A DNA stretch of 64,000 nt from Escherichia phage vB_EcoM_Schickermooser: sequence record NC_048196.1. One strand, given 5' to 3'. Positions 1 through 51,135 of this stretch are shown one piece after another. Each line of letters begins with the position of its first letter. Positions within the stretch are counted from its first letter, which is position 1. The position numbers and the translations under genes are program-made. The notes under the pieces were generated by a model that had not been told where the DNA came from, searched no databases, and saw only the letters and a program-made list of their open reading frames with translations.

Positions 1-629
1 CCTGCAAAATGGTAAGTCTTTACAGATCTTGACCAACCTGTTTTTAATACTTCAAAAATAGCTTCTGCTAAATCTGGGGCATATGTTGGACAAGAGAACT
101 GATCTGCAACGATAGTAAAATCACGTTGTCCATCATTATAGCGAGACAACATAGTTTTTAGAAAGTTATTTCCAAATTCACTATATACAGACGCTGTTCG
201 AATAATATATGCGTTCGGGTTAACTCCTCGCACCATTTTTTCACCGAGTTCTTTCGTATACCCATAATTGTTTATCGGGTTAGGTGTAGTATCTTCAAAA
301 ATAGGATGAGAATAATTAAAAATATAGTCTGTAGAAATATGCACAAAATCAATTTTAAGTTTGCTGCACACTGCCGCAATATTTGCAGGGCCATAGGCAT
401 TAACAGCCAAAGCAGTAGCAAAATCATGTTCTGCTTTATCTACAGCCGTATAAGCAGCGCAATTAATAACACCATCTACATAATCTTCAATAATAGCGTT
501 TCGCACAGCTTCAAAATTTGTAATATCTACACGTTCTTTAGGATAAATTAAAGACACATTTGAAGGAGCCACTTTACGTAAAGCTTGTCCCAGTTGTCCA
601 TTACCACCCAATACCAGATATGTTAGCAT
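1..629 (-). CDS. rmlD: dTDP-4-dehydrorhamnose reductase, partial (3' end beyond window start)
   Basis: Minus-strand ORF with ATG at 629; hand translation [15 protein letters not shown]... shows Rossmann GxxGxxG, AAYTAVDKAE and STDY motifs typical of RmlD; last gene of rml operon. Confidence 0.7.
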   Translation of the reverse strand, partial: MLTYLVLGGNGQLGQALRKVAPSNVSLIYPKERVDITNFEAVRNAIIEDYVDGVINCAAYTAVDKAEHDFATALAVNAYGPANIAAVCSKLKIDFVHISTDYIFNYSHPIFEDTTPNPINNYGYTKELGEKMVRGVNPNAYIIRTASVYSEFGNNFLKTMLSRYNDGQRDFTIVADQFSCPTYAPDLAEAIFEVLKTGWSRSVKTYHFA

Positions 630-1189
630 ACACCCTCGCTACGTAGCTGTTGAAAAGACTTAGCCATTGCATCTTTTGTTGATAAGATAGGTTTAAAATC
701 TTCGTCAAAAATCATATCGAAGCCCCAATCAATCCCTATATCAGGATCATCCCAACGTAAACTTTGTTCGCTGGAAGGGTCGTATGGAGTTGTGCATTTG
801 TATTCGAAGATAGCATCCATACTCAACACTATAAAACCATGTGCCAAACCAGGTGGAAGCCAGAACTGTGTATGGTGTCGTGCACGAAGAACAACACCGT
901 CCCAAGCACCGTAAGTAGGACTATCTTTACGTAGGTCTACAGCGAAATCCAATACTTCCCCACTTACACAACGAACAAGCTTACCTTGCGGATTATTTGT
1001 TTGAAAGTGCATTCCTCGCAAAACACCGAAGTTTGATTTAGACATGTTATCTTGAACGAAAGTTTGTCTACCAATGATATCTTCATATTTTTGTTCATTA
1101 TATGTTTCTAAAAAGAAACCACGGTCATCTTTATAAACGTCTGGTTTGATAATTACCGCACCTTCAATTTTTGTTTTTTCTACTTTCAT
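623..1189 (-). CDS. rmlC: dTDP-4-dehydrorhamnose 3,5-epimerase
   Basis: Track ORF 623..1309; likely true start at internal [26 protein letters not shown] (RmlC N-terminus), RBS GGAGGG upstream, ATGA overlap with rmlA stop. Confidence 0.8.
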
Positions 1190-2064
1190 TTTCCCTCCGC
1201 TAATTTGAGTAGGTATTGCCCGTACTCTGTTTTCTTCAGTGAGTTTCCATGGTAGACCAAAGTCTCTAAAGAAATCCACCCTTTTTTGAAAGCAATTTCT
1301 TCCAGGCACGCAATCTTCAATCCTTGACAGTTCTCAATAGTCTGCACGAATTGACCAGCTTCCATCAGACTGGCGTGTGTTCCTGTGTCAAGCCAAGTAA
1401 ATCCTCGTCCGAGAACTTCTACTTGTAACTTCCTGTCTTCGAGGTAGCTGCGATTGATATCGGTGATCTCCAGTTCTCCACGCGCGGAAGGGGTTACTTC
1501 TAATGCACGTTGAATAACAGAGTTATCATAGAAATATAAACCTGTGACAGCATAATCTGATTTAGGATTTTCAGGTTTCTCTTCAATAGAAATAACTTGA
1601 CGATTACTCCCAAATTCAACCACACCGAATCGTTCAGGATCTTTCACCAAACACCCGAAGATACAAGCTCCGCCCCAAACATCTACCATCTCACTAGCGT
1701 TAATCAGTAGTTTACCAAAGCTTTGTCCGAAGAATAGGTTGTCACCTAAAATAAGAGCAACAGAGTCTTCTCCGATAAAATCTTTACCGATGATGAAAGC
1801 GTCCGCAAGACCTCGTGGCTCGGATTGGATTGCGTAAGTGAGTTTTATCCCAAACATAGACCCATCTCCAAGAAGATGCTCAAAGTCTTCCTGATCGCCT
1901 GGTGTGGTGATGATTAAGATATCCTTAATGTCAGCCAACATCAATACCGATAAGGGGTAGTAGATCATAGGTTTGTCATACACAGGGAGCAATTGCTTGC
2001 TCACACTGCGTGTTACCGGATGAAGGCGGGTTCCACTTCCTCCCGCCAAAATAATACCTTTCAT
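1186..2064 (-). CDS. rmlA: glucose-1-phosphate thymidylyltransferase
   Basis: 292 aa; [18 protein letters not shown]...[17 protein letters not shown] nucleotidyltransferase signature of RmlA. Confidence 0.9.
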
Positions 2065-2072
2065 AACCCTCC

Positions 2073-3065
2073 TTAAATCTTCTTACTCCACCATTGAGGG
2101 TTGTTTAAGTACCATTCAATCGTTGAGTAGAGATCTTGTTCAAATGTAGAGTTTGCACTCCAACCCAGTTCAGACTCTATTTTAGAAGGATTGATTTCAT
2201 AACGCAAGTCATGTCCTTTACGATCTTCAACAAAAGTTATCAAGTTGGAAGAAGGGTAGGTTCCTGCTTCTGGATGTACAGCATCCATGTAGTCACAAAC
2301 CATATAGATGATCTCCATATTGGTTTTGGGATTACGTGTTCCAACATTATACGTTTGACCTGGTTCTCCACCTGTTGCCACTTGAAGAATAGCTCGCGCA
2401 TGATCCTCAACAAAAAGCCAGTCTCGCACCTGATCGCCTTTACCATACACCGGAATCTCTTTATTCGTCAAGATACTTGTGATGATTTTTGGGATCAGCT
2501 TTTCTGGATGTTGATAAGGTCCAAAGTTATTGGAGCAGTTGGTTATCACAACAGGTAAACCGTAGGTACGGTACCAAGCTTTCACAAGATGGTCAGATGC
2601 TGCCTTAGACGCACTGTACGGGCTTGAAGGCGCATAAGCTGTCTCTTCGGTAAAGGGAACGCCAGAGTCTGCCATATCGCCGTACACTTCGTCTGTGGAG
2701 ACATGTACGAACATCTTAAGTTTATTTTTTGGGAGGAGCCTTGCAGCTTCCAATAAATTGTATGTACCAATAATATTGGAGTCGATGAAAACTCGTGGAT
2801 TCTTGATAGAATTATCCACATGACTCTCTGCCGCTAAGTGAATGATGAAATCGGGATTGCACTCTACTACTAAACTTTTGACCTGGGTTTCGTTTGCCAA
2901 ATCTGTTATGCTTAGTTTAACGTGAGTGATATCGCCTACATTCTCAATATCTGCTGCATAGCCCATCTTATCAACGACAAAAACTTCGTTATTGGGATCT
3001 TGACAAAGAGAGCGCACCACGGCACTCCCAATAAAACCAAGACCACCTGTTACCAGATAGCGCAT
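2073..3065 (-). CDS. rmlB: dTDP-glucose 4,6-dehydratase
   Basis: 330 aa; N-terminal TGGLGFIGS Rossmann motif, SDR catalytic YxxxK (YSASK), length typical of RmlB. Confidence 0.9.
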
Positions 3066-3074
3066 CAGTTCTCC

Positions 3075-3401
3075 TTACCAGACATGTTGAGAAATAATAG
3101 TTTCCGTTTTAATGTTATATTTTTCAAGTAGCTTTGCATAGGCTTCTTTTGCATTCTCATTCAATTGCTCAAGATCTACAGCTATGCTTCCTTCTCCGCC
3201 TTCTAAATCAAGGCCATATATGCAATAAGACTCATCCGCATCGTAGAAAGGAGAGATGCGGCTTAAGTCAAGACCTTCTTGTAAGAACCAGTTAAAATCT
3301 CCGTCAAATTCTTCTTCAATTCTAGGATCTTCTCCTACAGCCTCTTCCCACTTATTAAAAGGTGCACCCTGTAACATACGCCATTCGATATCAATACCCA
3401 T
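3075..3401 (-). CDS. hypothetical protein (acidic, 108 aa)
   Basis: Track ORF; start overlaps stop of upstream small ORF. Confidence 0.5.
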   Translation of the reverse strand: MGIDIEWRMLQGAPFNKWEEAVGEDPRIEEEFDGDFNWFLQEGLDLSRISPFYDADESYCIYGLDLEGGEGSIAVDLEQLNENAKEAYAKLLEKYNIKTETIISQHVW

Positions 3402-3555
3402 TTTTCATCTCCTCCTCTTCTTGAGCAGCTTTAATAATTGCTTCATAAATATCGTAAGCAATGCCTCCACAACATCTAGCTTCGAAAGCTATTGCTTCTG
3501 CAATGTGATCTGTTAATTCTCGTGGAATGCGAACATACTCTTTTTCACTCTCCAT
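3391..3555 (-). CDS. hypothetical small protein (54 aa, MESEKEYVRIPREL...)
   Basis: Hand-translated minus-strand ORF below track size cutoff; tightly packed between neighbours. Confidence 0.4.
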   Translation of the reverse strand: MESEKEYVRIPRELTDHIAEAIAFEARCCGGIAYDIYEAIIKAAQEEEEMKNGY

Positions 3556-3697
3556 CTTCTACCTCCAACCCTTCTTTTTCAAAGACTACTACTCGTCCCT
3601 CACCATGACAATTCAGGCAAGGAAATGTTACCATAATTTCCACTTCCATCTGTCCCGTCCCACCGCACACAGGACAAAAAATAAGTTTTTCAGCCAC
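3545..3697 (-). CDS. small zinc-ribbon protein (about 50 aa, CPVC...CLNC), GTG start
   Basis: Hand-translated; AAGGAGG RBS upstream of GTG; two CxxC pairs. Confidence 0.35.
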   Translation of the reverse strand: MAEKLIFCPVCGGTGQMEVEIMVTFPCLNCHGEGRVVVFEKEGLEVEDGE

Positions 3698-3906
3698 TAT
3701 TCCTCCTTAATTATTTCAAATTTGGCAACACCATTTACAATAATATGACCACAAGACATAACTCCTAGCCAAGGATCGCCGTTTTTCTTCAGGCGTTTAC
3801 CGAATACATCACAAAAACCATTCTTCATTTCAGAGGCTTCATAAGAAGCCCCTTTATCAAAAACGTCTTTGAATGTGTCGATTATACCAACACATTTCAA
3901 AATCAT
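3697..3906 (-). CDS. hypothetical protein (69 aa)
   Basis: Track ORF; 4-nt overlap with nrdB stop. Confidence 0.45.
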   Translation of the reverse strand: MILKCVGIIDTFKDVFDKGASYEASEMKNGFCDVFGKRLKKNGDPWLGVMSCGHIIVNGVAKFEIIKEE

Positions 3907-4991
3907 TCGAAGTCAAGCTCCTCATCATCAGAGAGATCTTTGTTAGCTGAATTCAATTTGTAGTTAGTTAACTGAATCTCTTGGGCTGCTGACTGAATCA
4001 AATCAGGATTCAACCATTTTTCCATCCAAGCTAAAGGGCTATGTTTAGGTGCTTTAAACTTGGCTTTCATTTTCAATCGACGATAAATAGGAGCAGCATT
4101 GAAATAAACCCACTGTTTAGACAATTCGGCGTTAAGACCTACAATAAAACGACCTTCACTAAACAGGTAGTCACACCACTGTTCCTCTTGTTCAACAACA
4201 GTGTCGAGGATCAAAGTCAACTCTTCAATATTGTCTTCGTAAATTTTACGCCAAATTGGGTCATGCATCAATGCATCAATTACAGCATAATCCATCTTAA
4301 CATGCAAGATTTCATCTAGCATAATTTTCTGGATCAGTTTACAAGCTCCAACAAACAGTTGTTGTTCTGCCATAGCAAAAGTAGCAGAGAAGGAAGATAT
4401 AAACTGAATACCTTCTAATCCAATCAGGGCTACCATCCCTTTAAGAATCAGCAATCGAAGTTCATCGTTAGCTTCAATCAATCCTAGAGCATACTTATGA
4501 CCAGCTTCTTCCAACTGACCCATGATATCAGCAATGATACCCATACGATTGAAAATTTTATCATTAATCATAATCTGATTGATGACTTCAATTGGATCTG
4601 GAGTACATTGACGGATTATTTCAGAATACGTTAACGCATGGAGAACTTCCATTTCACTCTGCTTCATCATCATAGCACAGGCTTCATTATTACTCAAGAA
4701 TGGAGAGAACAAAGTGATGATTGATTTTGCAAGAGAATCATTTTCCCATTGGAACGATAAGTTTTTAATCATAACATCATAATTGTTTTTAGAACAAGCT
4801 ACGAAATCTTTACGTGTCTGATCCAGATTGACTTCATTCTCATCCCAATCTTGTGCTTTTTGAAGTTTGTAGAGTTTGTGCATCTCTGGATAAGTTACGT
4901 TAACAGAATCAAAGATCCCTAATTGTTCCCCTAAAAATACTGGATATTTTCCTGTTTTGTAAACTTCATTGTGTAAATTAATTGCTGCCAT
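3903..4991 (-). CDS. nrdB: ribonucleoside-diphosphate reductase beta subunit
   Basis: 362 aa, size and position immediately downstream of nrdA; ferritin-like R2 features. Confidence 0.8.
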   Translation of the reverse strand: MAAINLHNEVYKTGKYPVFLGEQLGIFDSVNVTYPEMHKLYKLQKAQDWDENEVNLDQTRKDFVACSKNNYDVMIKNLSFQWENDSLAKSIITLFSPFLSNNEACAMMMKQSEMEVLHALTYSEIIRQCTPDPIEVINQIMINDKIFNRMGIIADIMGQLEEAGHKYALGLIEANDELRLLILKGMVALIGLEGIQFISSFSATFAMAEQQLFVGACKLIQKIMLDEILHVKMDYAVIDALMHDPIWRKIYEDNIEELTLILDTVVEQEEQWCDYLFSEGRFIVGLNAELSKQWVYFNAAPIYRRLKMKAKFKAPKHSPLAWMEKWLNPDLIQSAAQEIQLTNYKLNSANKDLSDDEELDFE

Positions 4992-5007: not shown

Positions 5008-5030
5008 TAAAAAGGGGCCGAAGCCCCTAG
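5008..5030 (-). terminator. hairpin plus T-run between nrdA and nrdB (minus orientation)
   Basis: Minus strand reads AGGGGCTTCGGCCCCTTTTTATT. Confidence 0.45.
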
Positions 5031-5035
5031 TTTCA

Positions 5036-7276
5036 TCACATCTTGCAAGCTTCACAACCACCATCAGAATCTTCTTGTGCTAAAGAGTCTGCTGATTTTG
5101 TTCTACTATTAAGGTAATACAATGATTTGCCACCCAGTCTAGCAAAATTCAGAATAAACTGCATCTCAGCTTTCACGGATAAACGTCCACCTACCAATTT
5201 AGAATAATCTAGCCAAGAATCACAAGAAATTCCTTGGTCAGTAAACTTGGTAAAGATACCATACATTTCTGCAAGGTCTTTAGCCGGAGTATCCCAGGCA
5301 GATTGGTAGAACATTTTCAGTTTTTCGTAGTCTGGAACAATAAATAATACACTACCTTTCTGACTTTGTTTATACATAATGGTATCACGAACAGGATACA
5401 GAGAGTTAGTAGTATTGCTTACCAAACTGCTGGACTCATTAGGTGCAATAGCAGCCAATACACTGTTACGGATACCACCTTGTTCAATGATTTCAGCACG
5501 TAAACCTTCCCAGTCCATTTTAAGATCAAAATTACCGATACTATCTACTGTTTTAGCATAGGTGTCAATTGGTAGCCAACCTTGAGGCCATTTGGTCTTA
5601 TCGATCCATTCCGCATTACCTTTTTCCTTAGCCAGACGCAGAGAGGCTTTTGCCAACCAAAAGTAATGACGTTCTGCAAGTTCATGCATTAATTTTTTAG
5701 CATAAGCATCTGAATAATTTACAAAATTACTTGCCAAGTAATGCGCTAAGTTTGTAATACCTACACCAATAGATCTACGTGCTTTAGCAGTTATTTCGTT
5801 ATGTTTAAATGGATAATCCATTGTTTCAATAACGTTGTCAATTGTCAATACAGTGTAGTATGCAACATCCTCATATTCTTCAGGTAATACACGACCAGCA
5901 ACAATAGAAGATAAGAAGCATAAAGCCAATTCTTGATCTTCTGTATTCTCACCAGTAAAGAGATCCGGCATACTGTGGAAAGCTTTAGTTGGCAAGAAGA
6001 TCTCTTGACACAGGTTTGATTGATACACCGTATCCAGGAAAGGTGTATGGTTGTTAACGTTGTCAGCAAAGAACATGTAAATACGTCCTGTTTCTGCACG
6101 TTGAACAATAATCTCTGTCAGAAGATCACGAGCCTTAACAAATTTTTTCTTAATGCGACGACGACTTACTTTGTCATAAACTGCATCAAACTCTTCTTCA
6201 CTTTTATATAAAGCTTCATAAAGTTCAGGAGCATCATCACAACTAACTAACATCCAGTCTTCGTTTTTTGCTGCTCGACGCAAGAACGAACGGTTAACAA
6301 CAATAGAATAATCTAGTTTATCCACTCGTTTATCTATAGGTGTTGTTGGATTCTTCAGTCGAATCAGATCGTCGAAGTCTGGTTCAAGTATGGTAAAGGT
6401 AACTGTAGCACTACCTCCACGGCTTGCTTGCTTTGAAGCTCCAACACTATCTTCCATCCATTTCAGATACGGAAGAAGACCACCGTGAATAATACGATTA
6501 TTCTTAACACCTTGACCTGTGGCACGAGTTTGAAGATTAACACCAATACCTGCGTTATTCAACGTATACTCATGAGCTAAGTAATTAGCAATGGCTAAAG
6601 ACTCTGCCGTATCGTCTGCACGGAATAAACAACAAGACGCACTTCCTTTGATTGGAGTTCGTAGAGTTGTCAGATATGGCGATGGCAGATTAATCTTAAG
6701 ATCGCTGACATAAGTATAAAGTTTTTTAATATCTTCTATACGGCGTTCTTTTGGTTGGATCTCCATAACCTTCATTGCGATACCAATGAAAAGGAACTGT
6801 GGAGACTCATGCACCACATCGTTTACTGCATCTCGAATAAGATATTTATCCACCATTTGACGTAAAACAGAATAACCATAAGTTAGATTTTTATTATGCT
6901 TTACAATCTTACCGATTTCTTTGATCTCTTCATCAGTATAATCCATTTTAGCCCAATGACCACGTTCTACCATATCATGATAAAAGGTATTCAGTGAAGG
7001 GATACTGTGGTATCCCCCATGAGCCTGTTTGTAAATCATACCCAGAAGAAGTCTTCCTGCCATATCACTGTAAGCTTGTGTTTTCTTGTCAATACACGCT
7101 GCAATCATTGCTTTATGCAGATCACGTGTAGACACACCGTCATAACACCGCTTCACAGCTTCTAATTCAATTTCAGACCAGTTTAGTTTACCTGCTGCAA
7201 ATTCAGACCACTTGCGAAGTTTTTCTGGATTAAACTCCTCTGTCTTACCGTTAGATTTAGTTACAAAACGAATCAA
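5036..7276 (-). CDS. nrdA: ribonucleoside-diphosphate reductase alpha subunit
   Basis: 746 aa; class I RNR large-subunit length and conserved cysteine-containing regions. Confidence 0.85.
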   Translation of the reverse strand: MIRFVTKSNGKTEEFNPEKLRKWSEFAAGKLNWSEIELEAVKRCYDGVSTRDLHKAMIAACIDKKTQAYSDMAGRLLLGMIYKQAHGGYHSIPSLNTFYHDMVERGHWAKMDYTDEEIKEIGKIVKHNKNLTYGYSVLRQMVDKYLIRDAVNDVVHESPQFLFIGIAMKVMEIQPKERRIEDIKKLYTYVSDLKINLPSPYLTTLRTPIKGSASCCLFRADDTAESLAIANYLAHEYTLNNAGIGVNLQTRATGQGVKNNRIIHGGLLPYLKWMEDSVGASKQASRGGSATVTFTILEPDFDDLIRLKNPTTPIDKRVDKLDYSIVVNRSFLRRAAKNEDWMLVSCDDAPELYEALYKSEEEFDAVYDKVSRRRIKKKFVKARDLLTEIIVQRAETGRIYMFFADNVNNHTPFLDTVYQSNLCQEIFLPTKAFHSMPDLFTGENTEDQELALCFLSSIVAGRVLPEEYEDVAYYTVLTIDNVIETMDYPFKHNEITAKARRSIGVGITNLAHYLASNFVNYSDAYAKKLMHELAERHYFWLAKASLRLAKEKGNAEWIDKTKWPQGWLPIDTYAKTVDSIGNFDLKMDWEGLRAEIIEQGGIRNSVLAAIAPNESSSLVSNTTNSLYPVRDTIMYKQSQKGSVLFIVPDYEKLKMFYQSAWDTPAKDLAEMYGIFTKFTDQGISCDSWLDYSKLVGGRLSVKAEMQFILNFARLGGKSLYYLNSRTKSADSLAQEDSDGGCEACKM

Positions 7277-7543: not shown

Positions 7544-7954
7544 TCATTGATTAGTATCATCTGCTTTCGCAGGATCATAAGAGTTACCGAAATCATCCAT
7601 CTTAATATGTGACGCACCCCAACCTGTAAATTCTTCATCACCAAAATGAAAAATATCATTTTCTTGGTAGATTCGTTTAAAACCACAATTAGGTGAAACA
7701 GGGAAAGTGAAAAGCGTTGTATTTGCAAACACTACTCGCTTATCGTTATTGCTTCGGATATTCACATTACGCTCAACAGAATAGTGTGAATCTTCAGCCA
7801 TACCCAGCATTACAAGCGACGCTCTAATAACAGCATTTTGTTTCTCGTGTGGGATATTACCATTGTGTTTATTTGATTCTAGTTTCCAGATAGGGGTAGA
7901 CATTACAGTAGACATGCTTACGGTAGCCCAAGTTGTAGTATTTACTAATGACAT
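7544..7954 (-). CDS. hypothetical protein (about 137 aa)
   Basis: Track ORF 7544..7987; start moved to ATG preceded by GGAGGAGG RBS. Confidence 0.45.
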   Translation of the reverse strand: MSLVNTTTWATVSMSTVMSTPIWKLESNKHNGNIPHEKQNAVIRASLVMLGMAEDSHYSVERNVNIRSNNDKRVVFANTTLFTFPVSPNCGFKRIYQENDIFHFGDEEFTGWGASHIKMDDFGNSYDPAKADDTNQ

Positions 7955-8008
7955 ATTTTCTCCTTCATTTTGAATGGGAGGACTCACCTCCTCCCAGTAT
8001 TGTGCTAT

Positions 8009-8052: not shown

Positions 8053-9051
8053 TCACCATTTAGTATGATTTGTTAAAAGTTGACGATGTTGAATCCAGCC
8101 TTTGAAATTGCCAGACCAAAACTTACCATTACGATCTACATGGGTAATACCTGGTTCCCAAGAGTTAAAATCCCAAGGAGCATTGATAAACAAATCTTCA
8201 AAACAGTTCTCTCCGTATTGTTCGCATGTTTCTTGCATTGGGGTGGCTTGATGTTCAAACGGAGAAGCATGAACCTTGCGCCCAGTTAGCAAACGACCAT
8301 AGATATCTAAAGCTTTATCTTTAGTTGCATTCAAACGACGATAGCTAACCTGTGCACAACACGAAGCTGAAATAGCTTTGGCTTCTTCCAAAGTAAGCAC
8401 AACAACTTCTCCAGATTCATCTTGAACATAGTATCCACCAAAAACAAAATGATCGTCACCTTCTGTGCCAATACTATCATAGAAATGGTCTACATAAGGT
8501 GTGTGCCATTGCCCTGGTTTCAGCACTTCTGGTGTAGATTCTTCATACTCTTTGTGCATCTCTTTAGCCAAAGCCTCGATAGTAGGATCGGCTTCTTTGT
8601 CATCACGTAGCCACCAGAAATTTTCATATTCTGTTGCTGTCAGAACTGTTTTAATTCGTTGGAAAGGTTCCAGAAGACGGTTTGCAACTTGTTTGTGGTA
8701 CCCTGCCAAAGAGAATTCTTCTGCAAAACGTGCTGCACTAAGCGCGGCAAGATCCCACCACTCTTGAGCAGTATAACCTGCATCAATAAGAGCATCATGG
8801 TCAACACCTTTATCCTGCATACCAGGTTGGTTAGCCCCAAAACGATAAGGACGAGCAGGTTGACTTCGCACCATTTCAATCAGTGTTTTAACAGGTATAG
8901 CACGGCTAGAAGCAGCATTACGACTGAACAGGCGGTGAGTCATCAATTCTGAATGAATAATACGTGGATACTCTAGTTCAAAAGTTACAATCTCTTTTCC
9001 GTCTTCAGTGATGGAATGCGCAATAATACTAGCCGAAATCTGTTTTGTCAT
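8053..9051 (-). CDS. thyX: flavin-dependent thymidylate synthase-like
   Basis: 332 aa; MTHRLFSRNAASSRAIP resembles ThyX RHR/serine signature. Confidence 0.6.
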   Translation of the reverse strand: MTKQISASIIAHSITEDGKEIVTFELEYPRIIHSELMTHRLFSRNAASSRAIPVKTLIEMVRSQPARPYRFGANQPGMQDKGVDHDALIDAGYTAQEWWDLAALSAARFAEEFSLAGYHKQVANRLLEPFQRIKTVLTATEYENFWWLRDDKEADPTIEALAKEMHKEYEESTPEVLKPGQWHTPYVDHFYDSIGTEGDDHFVFGGYYVQDESGEVVVLTLEEAKAISASCCAQVSYRRLNATKDKALDIYGRLLTGRKVHASPFEHQATPMQETCEQYGENCFEDLFINAPWDFNSWEPGITHVDRNGKFWSGNFKGWIQHRQLLTNHTKW

Positions 9052-9060
9052 TTTTTCTCC

Positions 9061-9669
9061 TTAGTTTTTAAAATTGTTCAAAGTGTTAAAAACATCCAAA
9101 CATGTTAACCACTGATCTTCTAAACCTGTGATCACAACATTTGGTTTTTTCTTTAGTTCTTCTAGATGGTTATCTTTATAAGGCGTATTAAAATATATTT
9201 TAACCACTTCATCTGGAAAATATAGTAGGTTATCAGCCCTGTCATCTATTGCTATATCACAAGGCAATAAGTATTTTTCTTTCGTAGCAAAAAAGCCGTT
9301 ACCAGATCCTTTGCTAAAATCAATCGTATCTAACGTTCTTAAAACATGCTTATGTTTAGAACTTAAGTGACCACCTTTTGTCACACTTGCGATCAAAAGA
9401 TTGCTACCTTTCCTTGAAACATACTTTAAGAAATCTGGCATACCTGGAACAAAACCCATTGTATCATAGAGATGAGGATTATCCAGAAATCCGTAAGGAT
9501 CTATATTGAACTCCTCCCTGAAACCAGGAAAGTAGTTGGTAAGATCATAGTCTGCATTTTTTGTGAATGTGTCTATCTTAACACCAAGTCCACTAATCTT
9601 ATTCAACCATTCTAACCAAGCAACATCTAATGGAGCCACAACTAAATCCCAATCACATACTATCTGCAT
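9061..9669 (-). CDS. HAD-family 5'(3')-deoxyribonucleotidase-like
   Basis: N-terminal IVCDWDLVV matches HAD DxD motif; located in nucleotide-metabolism block. Confidence 0.45.
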   Translation of the reverse strand: MQIVCDWDLVVAPLDVAWLEWLNKISGLGVKIDTFTKNADYDLTNYFPGFREEFNIDPYGFLDNPHLYDTMGFVPGMPDFLKYVSRKGSNLLIASVTKGGHLSSKHKHVLRTLDTIDFSKGSGNGFFATKEKYLLPCDIAIDDRADNLLYFPDEVVKIYFNTPYKDNHLEELKKKPNVVITGLEDQWLTCLDVFNTLNNFKN

Positions 9670-9705
9670 AAAACCTCCTCTCTCTTTTAGTATAGTTATC
9701 TTATA

Positions 9706-17448: not shown

Positions 17449-17853
17449 TTATTGAAGTTTAAGTGAACCACGAAGACGTTTCTCTTGCTGATCACGGATA
17501 TATTGTGGAACCTCGTGAATTGAATCATTACCGTGCCTATTTTCAACAATTAAAGAGATAACTTGATAACCAAACTCTTCAGCAAGAGCTAGATAAGGTT
17601 TAAGTTCTTTCTCTGTGGTTGAAGTATTAGAAACAATAATCTTGTTAAGATTAGATGCCATAGCATCACGAACAATACCCTGACACCATGCGTGTGCTTT
17701 ACCTACATTTTCTGGCTTCCAATCGTAAACACCACTCTCTGTGTAATGATATTGATCTGCCTCACAGATAGGCCAATAACCTTCAGAAATAATTTCTGCT
17801 ACTGTAGATTTACCAGCACCTGAAACGCCACGTAAAATGATAAGTTGTTTCAT
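17449..17853 (-). CDS. pnk: polynucleotide 5'-kinase (T4 Pnk kinase-domain-like)
   Basis: Walker A GVSGAGKST; resembles T4 Pnk N-terminal domain; adjacent to RNA ligase. Confidence 0.6.
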   Translation of the reverse strand: MKQLIILRGVSGAGKSTVAEIISEGYWPICEADQYHYTESGVYDWKPENVGKAHAWCQGIVRDAMASNLNKIIVSNTSTTEKELKPYLALAEEFGYQVISLIVENRHGNDSIHEVPQYIRDQQEKRLRGSLKLQ

Positions 17854-18786
17854 TTATCCTCCAAAAAAGTTTTCGATTTTTTCACGTCGCTCTTGCTGAT
17901 TTAAAGCAGCCCATTGAGTCTTCGTAAAATTATTTCGAATCCATTCTAACAAAGCGTAATATTCTTCGTCAACCATTTGTTTGGCATTTTTTGGATTATC
18001 CCAAATCAGATCCCACTTTTTATCTCCACCGCGCATAAGAAACTTCTTAGTAAGATAGTGTGGTGATTTAATTTTTAAAAGTAAGTTGAACGGATAGTTT
18101 GTTTCACGAACTACAAACCCTTCGTGTTTACAATGTTTAGACATTTCAACAACATCTGAAAACTTAACCATTGGATGAACTTCAGGACGCTTAAATTTGG
18201 TGACAGAAGCAATTCCATCAAGAGCACCTTCAGGTAACATAAAACTTGTCCCATCAGGATTTTGAATTCTGGCACCAATTAAGTATGCACCTGGTTCTTC
18301 TTCGACAATATGCGGATCAGAAGGATCACAGATTTCAAAAAGGAAAGTTGCTTTTGCACTCTCTGTCCATTTGATGAAATGTTCTATGTCATCACACTCT
18401 GAAACAATACGATTCTTTGCAATACTTGCAAAATCTGATTCAAGGCTTCCTGTTGTCGATACAATAAGTTGACCTTTATATACACCTACAGAGGCCATAA
18501 AACCATTTACTTTACGAACCACATCTACAAGTTCATCCAATGGTAGATCTGTGCCATTCTCAAAACGATTAAAAATCTTAGTGAAAGGCCAAATAACAAC
18601 ATTGTCATCAGCATCAACAACGATTCCGCGACATTCTAGAAGACGAGAATCAATGCTCCATAAGTTATCCCAGAAAACTTTGTTCTTATACTTAAGAACA
18701 GATAGACCAGAATACTCTCCTTCTTTATATGTTTTCTTATGAACTAAACCTTTTTCAACCAAATCGTCGCAATTAAATTTAGTCAC
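17854..18786 (-). CDS. RNA ligase, Rnl1 (T4 RnlA)-like
   Basis: LLECRGIVVDADDNVVIWPFTKIFN and motif I KVNGFM resemble T4 RnlA ALECRGIMFE...KEDGSL. Confidence 0.6.
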   Translation of the reverse strand: MTKFNCDDLVEKGLVHKKTYKEGEYSGLSVLKYKNKVFWDNLWSIDSRLLECRGIVVDADDNVVIWPFTKIFNRFENGTDLPLDELVDVVRKVNGFMASVGVYKGQLIVSTTGSLESDFASIAKNRIVSECDDIEHFIKWTESAKATFLFEICDPSDPHIVEEEPGAYLIGARIQNPDGTSFMLPEGALDGIASVTKFKRPEVHPMVKFSDVVEMSKHCKHEGFVVRETNYPFNLLLKIKSPHYLTKKFLMRGGDKKWDLIWDNPKNAKQMVDEEYYALLEWIRNNFTKTQWAALNQQERREKIENFFGG

Positions 18787-18787
18787 A

Positions 18788-19339
18788 TTACTCTCCTTTG
18801 ATTATTTTGTGATGGTCTACAGTCACGATATCTCGTTTACTCATCATAGAAATTATCTCATCAAAATGCAAGATTTTTCCGTGTGCATCCCAACCCACAT
18901 CTAACATTTTACCATAAGCTTCATCAGGGAAAGATCCGTGGGAATGCCCGTGTAGCATGATTGATCCACGACCTTGTTTATTCCAGGAGGCCATAGGGTA
19001 ATGACTTAAGACGAAGAACAGCTTCTGATATTTCACTTCGTCATAATACACCACTTCCCCATACTCTGCAAGCACTTCTCGGTGTTTGCTGTAGTCATGG
19101 TTCCCAACACAGTAGGTGATATCTCCTTGGAGACGAGAAGCAATTTTACGGGTATCTTCTTCAGTTCCGAAACAGAAGTCGCCCAAATGCCACATCTTAA
19201 CACCAGGAGTAGTAGCACATTTGTTCCATGCTTCGATCAAGGCTTCTGTCATGTGGTCCATATCTTCCCACGGACGATATTCAGGAGCAAACTCTCGAAT
19301 ACGTTTATGCATAAAATGCAAATCGCTTGTAATAAACAT
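18788..19339 (-). CDS. calcineurin-like metallophosphoesterase
   Basis: GDF...GNHDY...GHSHG metallophosphatase motifs. Confidence 0.6.
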   Translation of the reverse strand: MFITSDLHFMHKRIREFAPEYRPWEDMDHMTEALIEAWNKCATTPGVKMWHLGDFCFGTEEDTRKIASRLQGDITYCVGNHDYSKHREVLAEYGEVVYYDEVKYQKLFFVLSHYPMASWNKQGRGSIMLHGHSHGSFPDEAYGKMLDVGWDAHGKILHFDEIISMMSKRDIVTVDHHKIIKGE

Positions 19340-21880: not shown

Positions 21881-22071
21881 TTCTTTACGTACTCCATGAT
21901 TGGAGTATGGTCGCCAGTAAGCGTAACACGGCTGTAGGACACATCTTGTGTCTTCAATGTATCAATCCACTCTAAGAAGTGTTCTTTCGCTTCTGTGTAG
22001 TTCTGTGTGCCTTTAACAACGTGTATACCATCTAGCGTTACACGGAATACCATTTGAATAACGTCTTTCAT
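21877..22071 (-). CDS. hypothetical protein (64 aa)
   Basis: Track ORF. Confidence 0.4.
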   Translation of the reverse strand: MKDVIQMVFRVTLDGIHVVKGTQNYTEAKEHFLEWIDTLKTQDVSYSRVTLTGDHTPIMEYVKK

Positions 22072-22183
22072 TTCTTACCTCCTTTGTTGTCAAAGTAGCT
22101 TACCAGAACATCGTGAACCACACACATGGCAAAAATCAGAACAATTGTTGCCAGGATTGGGTTCTCACTAATTAGTGCTATCA
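22068..22183 (-). CDS. small hydrophobic protein (about 38 aa)
   Basis: Internal start of track ORF 22068..22265 with GGAGGTGG RBS. Confidence 0.3.
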
Positions 22184-22491
22184 TCTTTAACCACCTCCAA
22201 TTGCCTTTCGAGTTTGACTTTGTTTGAGAACTGATAATGACACAACTTACATTGCATGTCAACAATCTGATCGTGATTTAACCCTACAATTTTAACTTCC
22301 TTTGCACCATCCCACTCCAAATACTCAAAGCCATCCAAATGATTACTCTTGTCCAACAGGAATGCTATCTGCTGCCATTCAATCTGAATATCATTTAAAT
22401 GATATGCTGCACAGAAGATATCCTCGTAGTAAAAGACGATCATTGTCATTGCTTCGTCCAGCACAACTACCTCTTGTCTTGTAAATCTCAT
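22168..22491 (-). CDS. hypothetical protein (107 aa), first gene of leftward block
   Basis: Track ORF adjacent to divergent control region. Confidence 0.45.
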   Translation of the reverse strand: MRFTRQEVVVLDEAMTMIVFYYEDIFCAAYHLNDIQIEWQQIAFLLDKSNHLDGFEYLEWDGAKEVKIVGLNHDQIVDMQCKLCHYQFSNKVKLERQLEVVKDDSTN

Positions 22492-22968
22492 TCTAGCCTC
22501 CTAAACGCGTCTCTGACGCACTTTTTATATATAAGATGATAAATCACCTTACCTAGTAAGTGAACTTTCTCTACGAGCCTCTTATGAAGCTTATGTTATA
22601 GGCTATACTATTGCTACCTATTTAAGCAAGGTTTTTTGCACAAAGAAAATAATTTTTAATAAAACTCTTGACTTTTGTGTTCGAAGTGTGCTACCCTAGA
22701 AATCTATTAACGAGCGCAGCGAGTTAAGGTTTTAGGTTGTTGATGTAGTACTCTGTACTCAAGTACTGTACTCCGTACTAGATTAATAATTATTAAATAT
22801 TAATAATAAATAATTATTAGATCTAACAAACAGGTACAGTGTATCAGAACTGGTACGTACAGATCAACTTCTATCAATTAAAAATAATAAATTATTATAA
22901 ATAATACTTGATCTATAGATTAGTATGAAGTACAGTACGGAACATCTTAACAAGAATGGAGGTGTGCA
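22492..22968. promoter_or_regulatory. divergent intergenic control region (candidate early promoters and/or replication origin)
   Basis: 477 bp non-coding between leftward and rightward gene blocks; GTACT repeats and AT-rich palindromes. Confidence 0.5.
22746..22782. repeat. cluster of five GTACT repeats
   Basis: GTACTCTGTACTCAAGTACTGTACTCCGTACTAG read directly. Confidence 0.7.
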
Positions 22969-23154
22969 ATGATTAGTGAGAATCCGTGCAAATGGCATCA
23001 TGTGCCTATTAAAGATTGTATGTCTTGTAATCCACGTTCTATTTATAACATTGCATCTTATGACGATGACAATGTGTTAGACGATGATGAAGGCTGGGAG
23101 GATTTAGATTGGACTGGTTATGAAACCAAAAAGGATAAAATTATTCCTAGTTGA
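22969..23154 (+). CDS. hypothetical protein (61 aa)
   Basis: GGAGGTG RBS before ATG. Confidence 0.45.
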   Translation: MISENPCKWHHVPIKDCMSCNPRSIYNIASYDDDNVLDDDEGWEDLDWTGYETKKDKIIPS

Positions 23155-23946: not shown

Positions 23947-24021
23947 GGCCCTGTAGCTCAATGGGAGAGCTGTCGGCTCATAACCGATAGGTAGCTGGAT
24001 CGAAACCAGCCAGGGCCACCA
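23947..24021 (+). tRNA. tRNA-Met or Ile2 (anticodon CAT)
   Basis: Cloverleaf folded by hand; anticodon loop CTCATAA; encoded CCA. Confidence 0.8.
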
Positions 24022-24023
24022 AA

Positions 24024-24098
24024 GTCTTTATGGTGTAATGGATAGCACAGGAGTCTTCTAAACTCTTAGTCAAGGTTCGATTCCTTGTAAAGACACCA
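24024..24098 (+). tRNA. tRNA-Arg (TCT)
   Basis: 7-bp acceptor stem, loop CTTCTAA, T-loop TTCGATT, encoded CCA. Confidence 0.8.
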
Positions 24099-24294
24099 GA
24101 ACATTTTAACATGAATTAGCTCAAGTGATTTGAACCCACTACTGATCATGGTGGCAGAGAATGAGGCAAGTATGTCAGACATTATAAACAAAGGCCACGG
24201 TTATATTAGAAGACATAAATGCTCGAAGAGCACCGTTCGTGGAGAACGGGGGTTGGTGGAGTCACCATTCATGGTAAAATGTTTTAAAAAACTA

Positions 24295-24324
24295 TTGACA
24301 ACAAGTATTATTTTATGTTAGATT
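24295..24324 (+). promoter_or_regulatory. sigma70-like promoter, copy 2 of AACTATTGACAA family
   Basis: TTGACA-18nt-TAGATT. Confidence 0.45.
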
Positions 24325-24332
24325 ATAAGTAT

Positions 24333-24423
24333 GGAAGGGCAAATCGACGTGGCGACGAAAACGGTCTTGAAAACCGCCGAGCTTTAAAGAGCCTTGGGAG
24401 TTCGACTCTCCCTCCTTCCGCCA
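24333..24423 (+). tRNA. tRNA-Ser (TGA), long variable arm
   Basis: Loop CTTGAAA, long extra arm, discriminator G, CCA. Confidence 0.7.
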
Positions 24424-24428
24424 GGTTA

Positions 24429-24514
24429 GGTAGATTGGTGAAATGGTAGCCACGACAGTTTGCTAAACTGTAGTCGGAAACGGCGTGTAGGTTCGAGTCC
24501 TACATCTACCGCCA
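24429..24514 (+). tRNA. tRNA-Ser (GCT), long variable arm
   Basis: Stem ACAGT/ACTGT, loop TTGCTAA, long extra arm, G73, CCA. Confidence 0.75.
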
Positions 24515-24644
24515 AGTTCTTTTTAATGTAGCTTACTTTAATAGAGTAAACTTTCGGCAAATGGCCCCCACCATCTTACCGATAACTCATAGTTAGTGGT
24601 GCGAACACTGGCTATTTTAAAAAGAATTTAAATACTAGCATTTA

Positions 24645-24732
24645 GGTGAGTTAATTCCGTAGGGGTAGCGGGGCAGACTGTAAATCTGTTATCATTGCGA
24701 TTCGGGTGGTTCGACTCCATCACTCACCACCA
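24645..24732 (+). tRNA. tRNA-Tyr (GTA), long variable arm
   Basis: Anticodon arm GCAGA-CTGTAAA-TCTGT closely matches E. coli tRNA-Tyr; A73, CCA. Confidence 0.7.
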
Positions 24733-24738
24733 AATTAA

Positions 24739-24824
24739 GATGAGTTGGCTGAATGGTTTAAGCGGCGGACTGTTAATCCGTGTTCGAAAGAACGATATAG
24801 GTTCAAATCCTATACTCATCGCCA
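24739..24824 (+). tRNA. long-variable-arm tRNA with Asn-type anticodon arm (GTT)
   Basis: Acceptor GATGAGT/ACTCATC, 3-bp D-stem, anticodon arm GCGGA-CTGTTAA-TCCGT, 15-nt extra arm with GTTC-GAAA-GAAC hairpin, G73, CCA. Confidence 0.55.
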
Positions 24825-24831
24825 GAATTAT

Positions 24832-24910
24832 GGACTTGTAGAGTTAAGGTAAACCCCCCAGTCGCCAAGAGGCTTCTGGAATTGCAGGTATCGAATCCTG
24901 CCGAGTCCCA
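24832..24910 (+). ncRNA. tRNA-like element with degenerate D and anticodon arms
   Basis: Acceptor GGACTTG/CGAGTCC and T-arm-like hairpin present; no canonical anticodon arm. Confidence 0.25.
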
Positions 24911-24915
24911 GCTTT

Positions 24916-24990
24916 GCTCCTATAGTATAATGGCTATTACAACGGTTTTGTAATCCGTGGATCTCTGTTCGATTCAGAGTGGGAGCACCA
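24916..24990 (+). tRNA. tRNA-Thr (TGT)
   Basis: Loop TTTGTAA, T-loop TTCGATT, CCA; one mismatch closing anticodon stem. Confidence 0.7.
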
Positions 24991-25263
24991 ACACAACATT
25001 AAGGGCACTGTGATTGATCGTCGTATCCTGTGCACAAGGTCTGTTCGAAAGACAGTGTTCTTAGTATTGTGTTGATCACAAAAAGAGTTACCTGAAACTT
25101 GACCGGAGTAGGGTTGGATGGGGCAAAAGAAGAAGCGGCTCTCCCATCGACAGCAACGAAGAATAATATTTGACTTTGGTTTTGTATTATTTTAAGTTAG
25201 CTTACCGAACGTAGGGCTAGTCACCCAATGGGATACTCGTCACTGTCCCACTCAATAAAACTA

Positions 25264-25293
25264 TTGACAACCAATAGTAAAATGTAGTATAGT
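25264..25293 (+). promoter_or_regulatory. sigma70-like promoter, copy 3 of AACTATTGACAA family
   Basis: TTGACA-18nt-TATAGT. Confidence 0.55.
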
Positions 25294-25304
25294 AAAGATG
25301 TAGG

Positions 25305-25378
25305 GCGTTCTTGGTGTAGCGGTAGCATTCCGTCCTTCCAAGTCGGCGGCACGAGTTCGATCCTCGTAGAACGCTCCA
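25305..25378 (+). tRNA. tRNA-Gly (TCC)
   Basis: Loop CTTCCAA, T-arm ACGAGTTCGATCCTCGT, discriminator T, CCA; layout like E. coli tRNA-Gly. Confidence 0.75.
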
Positions 25379-25476
25379 AATTATTTAATAAAGGGTTGCC
25401 AGAAAACTTTCTCTTTTACTCATGGTTTTCTCCTTCTCTCACACCTCTTCTGGTTGCCCTTCATTAAATGATTTAT

Positions 25477-25552
25477 TGGTTTGTAGTGTAGTCAGGTAGC
25501 ACACGACACTTTGACTGTCGTAGGTTTGGTTCAAATCCAGACAGACCAGCCA
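25477..25552 (+). tRNA. tRNA-Gln (TTG)
   Basis: Stem CGACA/TGTCG, loop CTTTGAC, CCA. Confidence 0.7.
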
Positions 25553-25557
25553 TATAA

Positions 25558-25634
25558 CGGAATTTAGCTCAGTTTGGTAGAGCATACGCTTTGGGAGCGT
25601 AGGGTCGCAGGTTCGAATCCTGCAATTCCGACCA
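25558..25634 (+). tRNA. tRNA-Pro (TGG)
   Basis: D-arm GCTCAGTTTGGTAGAGC, loop TTTGGGA, CCA. Confidence 0.8.
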
Positions 25635-25640
25635 ATTTAA

Positions 25641-25714
25641 TGTTTCGTAGTTCAATGGTAGAACCCACGACTGATAATCGTGAGACACAAGTTCGATTCT
25701 TGTCGAAACAACCA
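25641..25714 (+). tRNA. tRNA-Ile (GAT)
   Basis: Stem CACGA/TCGTG, loop CTGATAA, CCA. Confidence 0.75.
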
Positions 25715-25716
25715 AT

Positions 25717-25790
25717 TTCCCGTTAGACTTACAGGATAAGAGTTCCACAGCTTATTGTGATGCTGGTTCGAATCCAGCACGGGATACATA
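25717..25790 (+). ncRNA. tRNA-like element with non-canonical anticodon arm
   Basis: Acceptor, D and T arms (GCTGG-TTCGAAT-CCAGC) present; anticodon region folds only as CACAG-CTTA-TTGTG hairpin; no encoded CCA. Confidence 0.3.
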
Positions 25791-25792
25791 AT

Positions 25793-25871
25793 AGCGGGAT
25801 AGAGGAGTCTGGTCGTCCTCGCCAGTTTCATATGCTGGAGATCATCGGTTCAAATCCGATTCCCGCCTCCA
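25793..25871 (+). tRNA. tRNA-Met or Ile2 (anticodon CAT), second CAT tRNA
   Basis: Loop TTCATAT, T-loop TTCAAAT, CCA; A1-C72 mismatch. Confidence 0.65.
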
Positions 25872-31490: not shown

Positions 31491-31970
31491 ATGGAACTCA
31501 ATAAAGATACACTGTGGGAACTCTTCAAAACCTTCGCTGGTTTTAAAGAGAATTCTGAATCCCAACAAGATTCTATACCATCTCAAAAACCTGAAACTCT
31601 AGTCAAACAAAATAAATTTGATGAAGAAAAGATGCAGGTTATTGAGGTCTTGTATTGTCCACCTGAAGAAGACGATCTCCACGGAGAGCGCATGTCTGAT
31701 TTGGAAATCAGGAAGATGGTTGACAACTTCAATGAGAATATTACCAACATTAGTGGTAATCTTGGTCACATGAAGAACACCGATAAGTTTTCTCCAATTA
31801 AAGCTTGGGTAAATGAAGTCGATTGTTACATTGGTGACGAACTCGTTGTGGAAGGAACTCCCCTCGTTAAAATCCAATTCAACGACCCTGAATTATATCA
31901 AGCTCGTAAAGACGGCGTTCTTAAAGGTTTGAGTATAGGCGCAATGGGCGTTAAAGTCAAGAAGGACTAA
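31491..31970 (+). CDS. head morphogenesis protein (possible prohead protease)
   Basis: 159 aa between portal and scaffold; function by position only. Confidence 0.3.
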   Translation: MELNKDTLWELFKTFAGFKENSESQQDSIPSQKPETLVKQNKFDEEKMQVIEVLYCPPEEDDLHGERMSDLEIRKMVDNFNENITNISGNLGHMKNTDKFSPIKAWVNEVDCYIGDELVVEGTPLVKIQFNDPELYQARKDGVLKGLSIGAMGVKVKKD

Positions 31971-50882: not shown

Positions 50883-51135
50883 AGAAAGTGGTTTTAAAAA
50901 ATTTATTCGCGGAATGTTCTGCACTTACCCTGGCAACGGGGTAAGCTCTACAAAAGTCTGGAACGCTGTAGGCATGTCTGTTATGACAGGCATGTTTATC
51001 TTTTTAGGAATAGAAAAAGAAATTCCTGAATGGATGGGTTGGGCTTTTGTTTTCATGATAACTCCTTCTCGCCTCATGAAAAATCTTATTGATTTACGCT
51101 GGGGCAGATCACAATCTACCAAAGAGGATGACTAA
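50875..51135 (+). CDS. small membrane protein (86 aa)
   Basis: Two hydrophobic segments. Confidence 0.35.
   Translation: MPKESGFKKFIRGMFCTYPGNGVSSTKVWNAVGMSVMTGMFIFLGIEKEIPEWMGWAFVFMITPSRLMKNLIDLRWGRSQSTKEDD

Follow-up and report, generated by a model that had tools for sequence, protein, structure and literature searches.

We followed up a block of four genes, rmlB, rmlA, rmlC and rmlD, at the left end of a 64,000-nucleotide stretch of DNA from Escherichia phage vB_EcoM_Schickermooser (NC_048196.1), the whole of which we call the window, and found that their predicted products, RmlA, RmlB, RmlC and RmlD, make up the pathway from glucose-1-phosphate to deoxythymidine-diphosphate-L-rhamnose (dTDP-L-rhamnose). 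The phage is a Phapecoctavirus, a phAPEC8-like Escherichia coli myophage, and a close relative carries a cassette of glycosyltransferase genes outside the region that corresponds to the window. We tentatively suggest that the Stephanstirmvirinae decorate virion proteins with rhamnose-containing O-glycans by means of their own rmlBACD genes and this portable cassette of GT-A and GT-B enzymes, a reading that we regard as possible rather than probable. In the proposed scheme, the Rml enzymes would convert host glucose-1-phosphate and deoxythymidine triphosphate (dTTP) into dTDP-L-rhamnose, which the phage's own transferases would consume, the rml operon thereby acting as a donor-supply module for the cassette; the cassette would in turn place the sugar on a phage protein, likely a virion protein, as in Che8-type mycobacteriophages. 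A four-enzyme pathway of its own would free the phage from dependence on the O-serotype of its host; many O-types lack rhamnose, so that RmlC and RmlD are not supplied by every host.

The rml block itself is an already known, annotated and discussed feature of this phage group, and what we add is the location of the cassette, its co-occurrence with rml and the kinship of one of its enzymes, GT3, to mycobacteriophage transferases. The four genes are annotated as Rml enzymes in deposited phage records (phAPEC8, ESCO13, Ro121lw and others), and their placement in the DNA-metabolism region has been called "peculiar" (Olsen et al. 2020, PMC7552041). A 2024 paper assumed a "rhamnose modification" without data, and the searchable literature yielded no experimental work on the function of the rml or transferase genes in the phapecoctavirus group.

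The rml block and its conservation

The four genes, with their predicted products, lie in the window as follows.

2073-3065, minus strand: rmlB, dTDP-glucose 4,6-dehydratase, 330 amino acids
1186-2064, minus strand: rmlA, glucose-1-phosphate thymidylyltransferase, 292 amino acids
623-1189, minus strand: rmlC, dTDP-4-dehydrorhamnose 3,5-epimerase, 188 amino acids
1-629 (reading frame 3-629), minus strand: rmlD, dTDP-4-dehydrorhamnose reductase, N-terminal 209 of 280 codons

An earlier note on this DNA had described four consecutive, translationally coupled minus-strand genes, and the junction sequences bear out both the order and the coupling. The upstream open reading frame (ORF) and rmlB are joined as TAA-GGAGAACTG-ATG, and rmlB and rmlA as TAA-GGAGGGTT-ATG, where the Shine-Dalgarno sequence GGAGG of rmlA starts immediately 3' of the rmlB stop codon. 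The stop of rmlA and the start of rmlC overlap as ATGA, rmlC and rmlD share a 7-nucleotide overlap (ATGCTAA), and a Shine-Dalgarno-like GGAG precedes every rml start; these junctions fit tight translational coupling. We placed the start of rmlC at ATG 1189, as annotated in relatives (the mechanical ORF list begins at GTG 1309). The rmlD gene starts at ATG 629 and leaves the window at its left edge, with 71 codons outside. Hence, the claim of a full pathway stands as far as the identification of four Rml enzymes goes, whereas its completeness needs a near-identical genome, because the window edge cuts rmlD: a complete 280-codon rmlD is present in Ro121lw, 99.5% identical in DNA.

We assigned the proteins to families by their scores against NCBIfam curated equivalog models, each compared with the cut-off of its model. 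RmlB reached 429.9 bits against TIGR01181 (cut-off 365.1), RmlA 461 bits against TIGR01207 (360.65) and RmlC 225.4 bits against TIGR01221 (155.75), which makes all three members of their families. The fragment of RmlD encoded in the window scored 198.2 bits against TIGR01214, below the cut-off of 224.05 because 71 codons lie outside, and the full-length Ro121lw protein passed with 236.4 bits. RmlB additionally matched Pfam GDP_Man_Dehyd and Epimerase and carries STDEVYG and YSASK (YxxxK) in its translation, while RmlA matched Pfam NTP_transferase and has GGSGTRL at residues 8-14. The closest solved relative of RmlC is the Salmonella enzyme (1DZR, E 4e-56), in alignment to which RmlC keeps RGxHFQ, QGKLVRC, xYK and WxD (the His, Lys, Tyr and Asp positions); RmlD keeps STDY and YGYTK (YxxxK) in alignment to 3SC6. 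We take these residues to have the catalytic roles that they have in the solved enzymes, which for RmlC is the Salmonella enzyme. Together, the equivalog scores and conserved motifs support the dTDP-L-rhamnose pathway assignment, and the check for homology to short-chain dehydrogenase/reductases or nucleotidyltransferases of non-Rml type ended with the ORFs in the Rml equivalog families. The equivalog match of RmlD favours rhamnose as its predicted product rather than the C4 epimer 6-deoxy-L-talose.

The block is the same element in phAPEC8, ESCO13, phi92 and other Stephanstirmvirinae, with 98-99.5% nucleotide identity to many phapecoctaviruses. Over its first 8 kb, the window shares 99.5% identity with Escherichia phage vB_EcoM-Ro121lw, and 98-99.4% with many other phapecoctaviruses (phAPEC8_ev052, ESCO13, ESCO5 and others). 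The block recurs, in an unchanged position, in 131 phage records that were sequenced independently of one another, and none of 5426 complete E. coli genomes matched it at more than 80% identity; the best E. coli match, of ~64% nucleotide identity over 48% of the query, corresponds to the host's own rfb genes. Neither chance nor chimerism can therefore account for it, and host DNA mis-assembled into a phage contig, an artefact to which we assign a negligible probability and for which the earlier note had asked for a check, was rejected on these grounds, the more so as the GC content (0.40-0.41) and negative GC skew of the block agree with those of the flanking phage DNA.

The block shares with bacterial RmlABCD (Salmonella/E. 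coli rfbBDAC) the same four enzyme families, their catalytic motifs and the form of a tightly coupled operon. It differs in lying not within an O-antigen or capsule cluster but in a strictly lytic myophage, between nrdAB and a glutaredoxin gene, and in its order B-A-C-D; the order of the K-12 rfb genes we take to be B-D-A-C. The nearest bacterial RmlA proteins are only 60-68% identical and come from many phyla, with Gammaproteobacteria, Bacteroidota and Bacillota among the groups represented, and we therefore see no recent donor. Among phapecoctaviruses, RmlC is 95-100% identical, falling to ~62% towards the phi92-like Justusliebigvirus phages, and the order thyX-nrdA-nrdB-rmlB-rmlA-rmlC-rmlD-glutaredoxin is conserved even in the divergent Klebsiella phage 05F01. 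This combination of divergence in RmlC with preserved gene order argues for an old pathway that has been kept vertically in Stephanstirmvirinae. More distant homologues of RmlC are present in approximately 39 further records from phages of other types, including an Acinetobacter jumbo phage, Synechococcus S-B05 and Sphingomonas PAU. Separately, we noticed that three Campylobacter-labelled records (MG065650, MG065656 and MG065645) and one Acinetobacter-labelled record (OP562383) closely match E. coli Stephanstirmvirinae; among records of this kind, B15 has 98.8% DNA identity to the window, the RmlC of ABPW7 is 98.9% identical, and C3 and A145 are phi92-like. The host labels of these four accessions are probably wrong.

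A glycosyltransferase cassette outside the window

Consistent with the earlier note, which had seen no glycosyltransferase in the window, a tblastn search with the phage's glycosyltransferases detected no homologue there. The rest of the genome, for which that note had suggested a search, was explored in the close relative EF1-1 (PQ571289), in which the window maps to 35,682-103,291. At 112,301-115,445 of EF1-1 (L004 12301-15445), ~9-12 kb past the right end of the window, we found four consecutive genes annotated as glycosyltransferases, situated between a primase/helicase gene and an endolysin-like gene, with DNA polymerase I and a Dam-like methyltransferase nearby.

gp189 and gp190, EF1-1 cassette: GT-B paralogues of 314 and 315 amino acids, 41% identical, phrog_7162
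gp191 (GT3), EF1-1 cassette: GT-A enzyme of 227 amino acids, phrog_2456
gp192 (GT4), EF1-1 cassette: 187 amino acids with a DxD-like motif (DTD), phrog_14179

The two GT-B paralogues gave weak Pfam matches to Glyco_trans_1_2 and 1_4, and the three transferase types gave no usable matches when compared with PDB chain sequences. In AlphaFold models, GT3 (predicted local distance difference test score, pLDDT, 88.5) adopts a GT-A fold, with an invariant DDD at 64-66 and ED at 141-142, and gp189 (GT1; pLDDT 93.3) adopts a GT4-like GT-B fold. Beside the cassette lies a Ter-type cluster (EF1-1 116,768-127,254, L004 16768-27254; also in contigs L088 and L091), which comprises TerD, vWA-TerF-like, TelA, SprT-like, TerC, a ComF-like phosphoribosyltransferase (PRTase) and ORFs annotated as phosphatase or hydrolase.

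The cassette and the rml block travel together. GT3, GT4 and RmlC occurred in essentially the same phage records, with nearly identical organism tallies: over four rml/transferase searches, Escherichia was counted 105, 105, 104 and 104 times, next to Campylobacter-labelled records (5), Phapecoctavirus (3) and Justusliebigvirus (3). The sister group of rV5-like phages, which has the ThyX and capsid homologues, was represented among neither the rml nor the transferase matches. Independent support for the link comes from the phage contigs L086 and L107, because they carry a gene for an RmlB-like nucleoside-diphosphate-sugar 4,6-dehydratase inside the cassette, adjoining GT3; this dehydratase scored 171 bits against TIGR01181, below the cut-off, and is 29-32% identical to the phage RmlB. 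We consider it likely that the cassette uses dTDP-rhamnose, a donor specificity that is predicted from these gene associations.

Acceptors of the sugar

What a lytic coliphage gains from bearing the cost of a full deoxy-sugar pathway is a puzzle for which there are now three testable alternatives with named genes. The acceptor could well be a phage protein of the virion, short of this being probable, and with moderate confidence we place protein (virion) glycosylation ahead of DNA glycosylation. In tblastn searches, GT3 had no phage relatives outside its own clade other than ~350 mycobacteriophage glycosyltransferases, belonging to cluster F Cheoctovirus and Myrna, and a few from Gordonia phages. 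Upon aligning a GT3 profile with gp102 of Boomer (Cheoctovirus) by hhalign, 194 of 227 columns were matched with a probability of 99.2% (E 8e-20), and, reciprocally, Boomer gp102 matched GT3's own PHROG, phrog_2456, with 204 bits; homology to the transferases of glycosylated mycobacteriophages was thus found for GT3, whose gene lies outside the window. According to Freeman et al. 2023, as summarised in PMC12363180 and PMC11256854, the capsid and tail-tube proteins of Che8, Corndog and Myrna are glycosylated by transferases that these phages encode themselves; Che8 and Boomer are of the same genus (Cheoctovirus). In the model-based fold searches, GT3 matched, among others, the protein O-glycosyltransferases GalNAc-T12, COLGALT1 and LH3 in the PDB, and the GT-B model GtfC/Gtf3 and SdgB.

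Furthermore, four phage contexts of temperate type, unrelated to one another, have GT3 and a GT-B partner amid late or packaging genes. A prophage of Serratia sp. M24T3 holds the full GT4-GT3-GT-B set between its lysis genes and terminase, with identities to the EF1-1 proteins of 41% (GT4), 37% (GT3) and 39-51% (GT-B). A P22-like contig has homologues of GT-B and GT3 between its terminase and portal genes, one lambdoid contig has them between the Q/HicAB region and its lysis genes, and a further lambdoid contig (L121) has them between the lysis genes and HNH/terminase; in a distant myovirus contig the pair is found 1.7 kb upstream of the terminase, portal and capsid genes. Directly upstream of GT3 in L121, at 9405-9704 on the plus strand, there is a threonine-rich, mucin-like ORF of 99 amino acids containing ...TTTAATPVAASTTTTTTTTTEPS..., a possible candidate, judged by its composition, for a mucin-like O-glycosylation acceptor. 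A small threonine/alanine-rich mucin-like ORF also adjoins the GT3/GT-B pair of contig L120 (13317-13709, plus strand). When we scanned for Ser/Thr-rich ORFs near the cassettes, GC-rich contigs yielded off-frame noise that made up most of the hits; the only convincing ones were the threonine-rich ORFs of L121 and L120 and, in the Ter cluster, a serine-rich ORF resembling a lipoprotein.

Several points weigh against virion glycosylation, however. The searchable literature gives no virion-glycan experiments for the phapecoctavirus/phi92 group. In Stephanstirmvirinae, the cassette sits on the strand of the replication genes, by primase/helicase, DNA polymerase and the Dam-like methyltransferase, and away from the structural genes. 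The major capsid protein aligns to its rV5-like homologues, whose phages have no transferases, to residue 331 of 333 with no C-terminal extension, such that a Che8-style C-terminal acceptor tail is not evident; nor did the C-termini of the capsid, decoration, tube and sheath proteins, which end shortly (...KLTTA, ...VFTS, ...ALTIQ), show one, and hence no C-terminal acceptor segment was found on the capsid or tail-tube subunits. GT3 and gp110, the Che8 transferase reported as essential, may not be orthologous, and GT4 has no similarity to the second Cheoctovirus transferase, the GT25-like Boomer gp105. The GT-A and GT-B folds are generic and also match enzymes acting on polysaccharides, teichoic acids, lipids, glycolipids and small molecules, so fold searches with the GT3 and GT1 models did not discriminate the acceptor. 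Finally, the co-occurrence of rml and cassette is weak when taken alone, because it comes close to one evolutionary event within one subfamily.

With the Che8, Corndog and Myrna systems, the cassette shares a phage-encoded GT-A enzyme of GT3's family and the clustering of several transferases, whereas the acceptor in those phages is a C-terminal capsid or tail-tube segment that has no counterpart seen here, and the present case concerns a Gram-negative host. We know of no nucleotide-sugar pathway in Che8, Corndog or Myrna. Giant viruses (Mimivirus with UDP-L-rhamnose; Megavirinae and chloroviruses with capsid or fibril glycans) make their own activated deoxy-sugar and have transferases that decorate virion proteins, but theirs is a eukaryotic-type UDP-rhamnose (uridine-diphosphate-rhamnose) route with unrelated enzymes and hosts. 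If virion glycosylation holds, it would be the first such system in phages of Gram-negative bacteria, beyond the actinobacteriophages, and the first to include a nucleotide-sugar pathway encoded by the phage itself. It would also be relevant to therapy, as mycobacteriophage glycan shields change antibody recognition and phAPEC8- and phi92-like phages are often put forward for therapeutic and biocontrol use. If the sugar instead goes to DNA or to the host envelope, a new anti-defence or exclusion mechanism would be at hand.

Remodelling of the host envelope, in which the transferases would alter the lipid-linked glycans of O-antigen, enterobacterial common antigen or lipopolysaccharide core, strikes us as unlikely; such changes could exclude superinfecting phages or stop progeny from sticking to debris. 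The folds do resemble those of enzymes with lipid-linked or polymer acceptors (PglA, PimA/PimB', TarP, TarM and chondroitin polymerase), rhamnose is common in O-antigens and the host pathway is homologous, and the location on the replication/nucleotide-gene strand, together with a sigma-70-like promoter match, would suit early expression. Yet no Gtr-type, Wzx, Wzy or WaaL-like protein was found in the annotation of EF1-1 or in our Pfam screen of that genome, which covered 41 non-structural ORFs of at least 150 amino acids and left out shorter ORFs and the structural region; for GtrABC seroconversion in particular, the same annotation and screen contained no component, GtrA-sized ORFs of ~120 amino acids being below the size screened. 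The temperate-phage cassettes lie in the late region, by lysis and packaging genes, which is not the usual site of conversion genes expressed in lysogens, and similarity to WbbL-type GT2 rhamnosyltransferases amounted to weak generic matches only.

Rather more doubtful is DNA glycosylation, by which rhamnose on a modified base would protect against restriction as does T4 glucosyl-hydroxymethylcytosine; it corresponds to the proposal of Olsen et al. 2020 (PMC7552041) that hydroxymethylated nucleotides are glycosylated, as in T4, a published reading that now looks less likely than protein glycosylation. In its favour, rml and cassette are both placed among nucleotide-metabolism and replication genes. 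GT3 matched Pfam TAGT below threshold (19.4 bits, cut-off 27.5, residues 32-68 only) and weakly matched the PHROG of the T-even beta-glucosyl-hydroxymethylcytosine alpha-glucosyltransferase (phrog_842, E 1.4e-5, compared with E 9.7e-13 for phrog_1579), and its R...DDD...ED pattern resembles the R...DDD...EDY/F of DNA-modifying GT-A enzymes; likewise, the top structural matches of the GT-B model, BshA and MshA, are also top matches of known DNA-modifying GT-B enzymes. The top 50 fold matches did not include T4 beta-glucosyltransferase. On the other hand, neither the EF1-1 screen nor its annotation contained a ThyA-type hydroxymethylase/hydroxylase, a TET/JBP protein, a 2-oxoglutarate dioxygenase or a C5-methyltransferase, and no enzyme family that makes an acceptor base was detected by Pfam among the scanned early-region ORFs of the window. 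The sole thymidylate-synthase homologue is of a ThyX type common to more than 1000 phage records without rml and transferases. Moreover, Maffei et al. 2021 (PMC8594841) describe phi92-like phages, which carry rml and transferases, as "exceptionally susceptible" to restriction-modification even though they possess "a putative dTDP glycosylation machinery", and phapecoctaviruses are absent from the list of genomes with viral DNA-type GT-A enzymes of Pyle et al. (Table S4). In addition, small lambdoid and P22-like phages carry the same cassette with no base-modification genes visible alongside it. Among the three destinations listed in the earlier note (DNA, virion or host O-antigen), DNA is thus the one most weakened, through the absence of an acceptor-base enzyme from the screened ORFs and the restriction sensitivity of relatives.

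With T-even and TET-associated DNA glycosylation (T4 alpha/beta-glucosyltransferases), the cassette shares the arrangement of several transferases adjoining replication genes, and RB69-type phages, which make arabinosyl-5-hydroxycytosine, encode a nucleotide-sugar pathway too (Lee et al. 2026; Pyle et al. 2024). Those systems, however, need an enzyme for hydroxylated or hydroxymethylated pyrimidines and confer restriction resistance, neither of which was found for the phapecoctavirus/phi92 group. A role of the ThyX-like gene as a specialised hydroxymethylase partner was considered separately and rejected: its lineage is phage-specific and extends over 1033 phage records, including rV5, ICP1, PAK_P3-like and N4-like phages, which are free of rml and transferases.

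It is improbable that rml has no link to the transferases and instead plays a role in thymidine or sugar-nucleotide pools (as a dTTP buffer or sink), supplies dTDP-sugars after host shut-off, or serves a small-molecule product, for example a glycosylated metabolite of the neighbouring Ter/PRTase cluster. The embedding of rml between nrdAB/thyX and glutaredoxin would agree with such roles, as would the TerD/vWA-TerF/TelA/TerC/PRTase cluster that adjoins the transferase cassette, and rmlA and rmlB are reportedly missing from a natural isolate, ESCO37, which grows nonetheless. However, the whole set of four enzymes has persisted over deep divergence, RmlC and RmlD, which are specific to rhamnose, among them, and this argues that the end product is what the phage needs. 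The loss in ESCO37 would be expected to be tolerable because, according to our complete-genome search, every E. coli genome has RmlA/RmlB-type genes (of the rfbA/B or rffH/G type), and RmlB-like genes occur within the cassette in other phages, as described above.

Neighbouring genes and other features of the window

Upstream of rml, and in the same orientation, the window contains the following features.

3075-3906, minus strand: small ORFs between nrdB and rmlB (108, 54, 50 and 69 amino acids), co-oriented
3903-4991, minus strand: nrdB (ORF list and annotation of relatives)
5028-5013, minus strand: terminator-like hairpin between nrdA and nrdB
5036-7276, minus strand: nrdA (ORF list and annotation of relatives)
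8036-8009, minus strand: top sigma-70-like promoter match, TTGACT-16-TATAAT, 11/12 (consensus match only)
8053-9051, minus strand: ThyX-like thymidylate synthase (PF02511, 34.8 bits)
9061-9669, minus strand: NT5C-type deoxynucleotidase (PF06941, 26.1 bits)

These ORF coordinates and Pfam matches confirm that rml is co-oriented with nrdAB, thyX and a nucleotidase; two small ORFs between nrdA and the ThyX-like gene, and further replication and recombination genes beyond, are also co-oriented. Of the small ORFs preceding rmlB, that of 108 amino acids has no Pfam match, those of 108, 54 and 69 amino acids are hypothetical proteins in the Ro121lw annotation, and that of 50 amino acids is annotated only in EF1-1. 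The ThyX-like protein, of 332 amino acids, is a long and very divergent ThyX. The genes nrdB and nrdA probably share a transcription unit with the rml block. The promoter match falls between the end of the ThyX-like gene, which it closely follows, and the start of the ORF at 7544-7987, and the promoter/terminator scan found no hairpin in the nrdB-rmlB interval comparable to the one between nrdA and nrdB, so that co-transcription of rml with the nrd genes from a host-type promoter, for which this match is a candidate, is plausible. For the early operon of which the earlier note had spoken, the scan offered only this promoter match and the hairpin. The nrdA-nrdB intergenic region spans 5013-5069, and its hairpin is GC-rich; in EF1-1, ESCO5 and several relatives, an HNH homing-endonuclease gene of ~0.65 kb is inserted between nrdA and nrdB, which is absent from the window.

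Farther along, the genes switch strand at ~22,000-23,000, with minus-strand genes up to 22491 and plus-strand genes from 22969, and the GC skew flips there. Just past this switch, a cluster of 10 tRNA genes occupies 23947-25871 on the plus strand (Met, Arg-tct, Ser-gct, Asn, Thr-tgt, Gly-tcc, Gln-ttg, Pro-tgg, Ile-gat and Met). On the minus strand at 17449-19339, adjacent genes for an AAA_33 kinase-like protein, an RNA ligase 1 (from the annotation of relatives) and a metallophosphatase look like a putative tRNA-repair module in the style of T4 Pnkp/Rnl1. The ORF of 159 amino acids at 31491-31970 (plus strand), between portal and scaffold, is called "DNA methyltransferase" (phrog_1530) in EF1-1, a label that looks doubtful because a head-maturation protease is expected at that position. 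At 50868-50910, the window has no counterpart to ~2.9 kb of EF1-1 (87,307-90,211) that includes a tail-spike gene; the variable part of phapecoctavirus genomes is the tail-fibre/tail-spike module, which takes up ~45.9-63.1 kb of the window.

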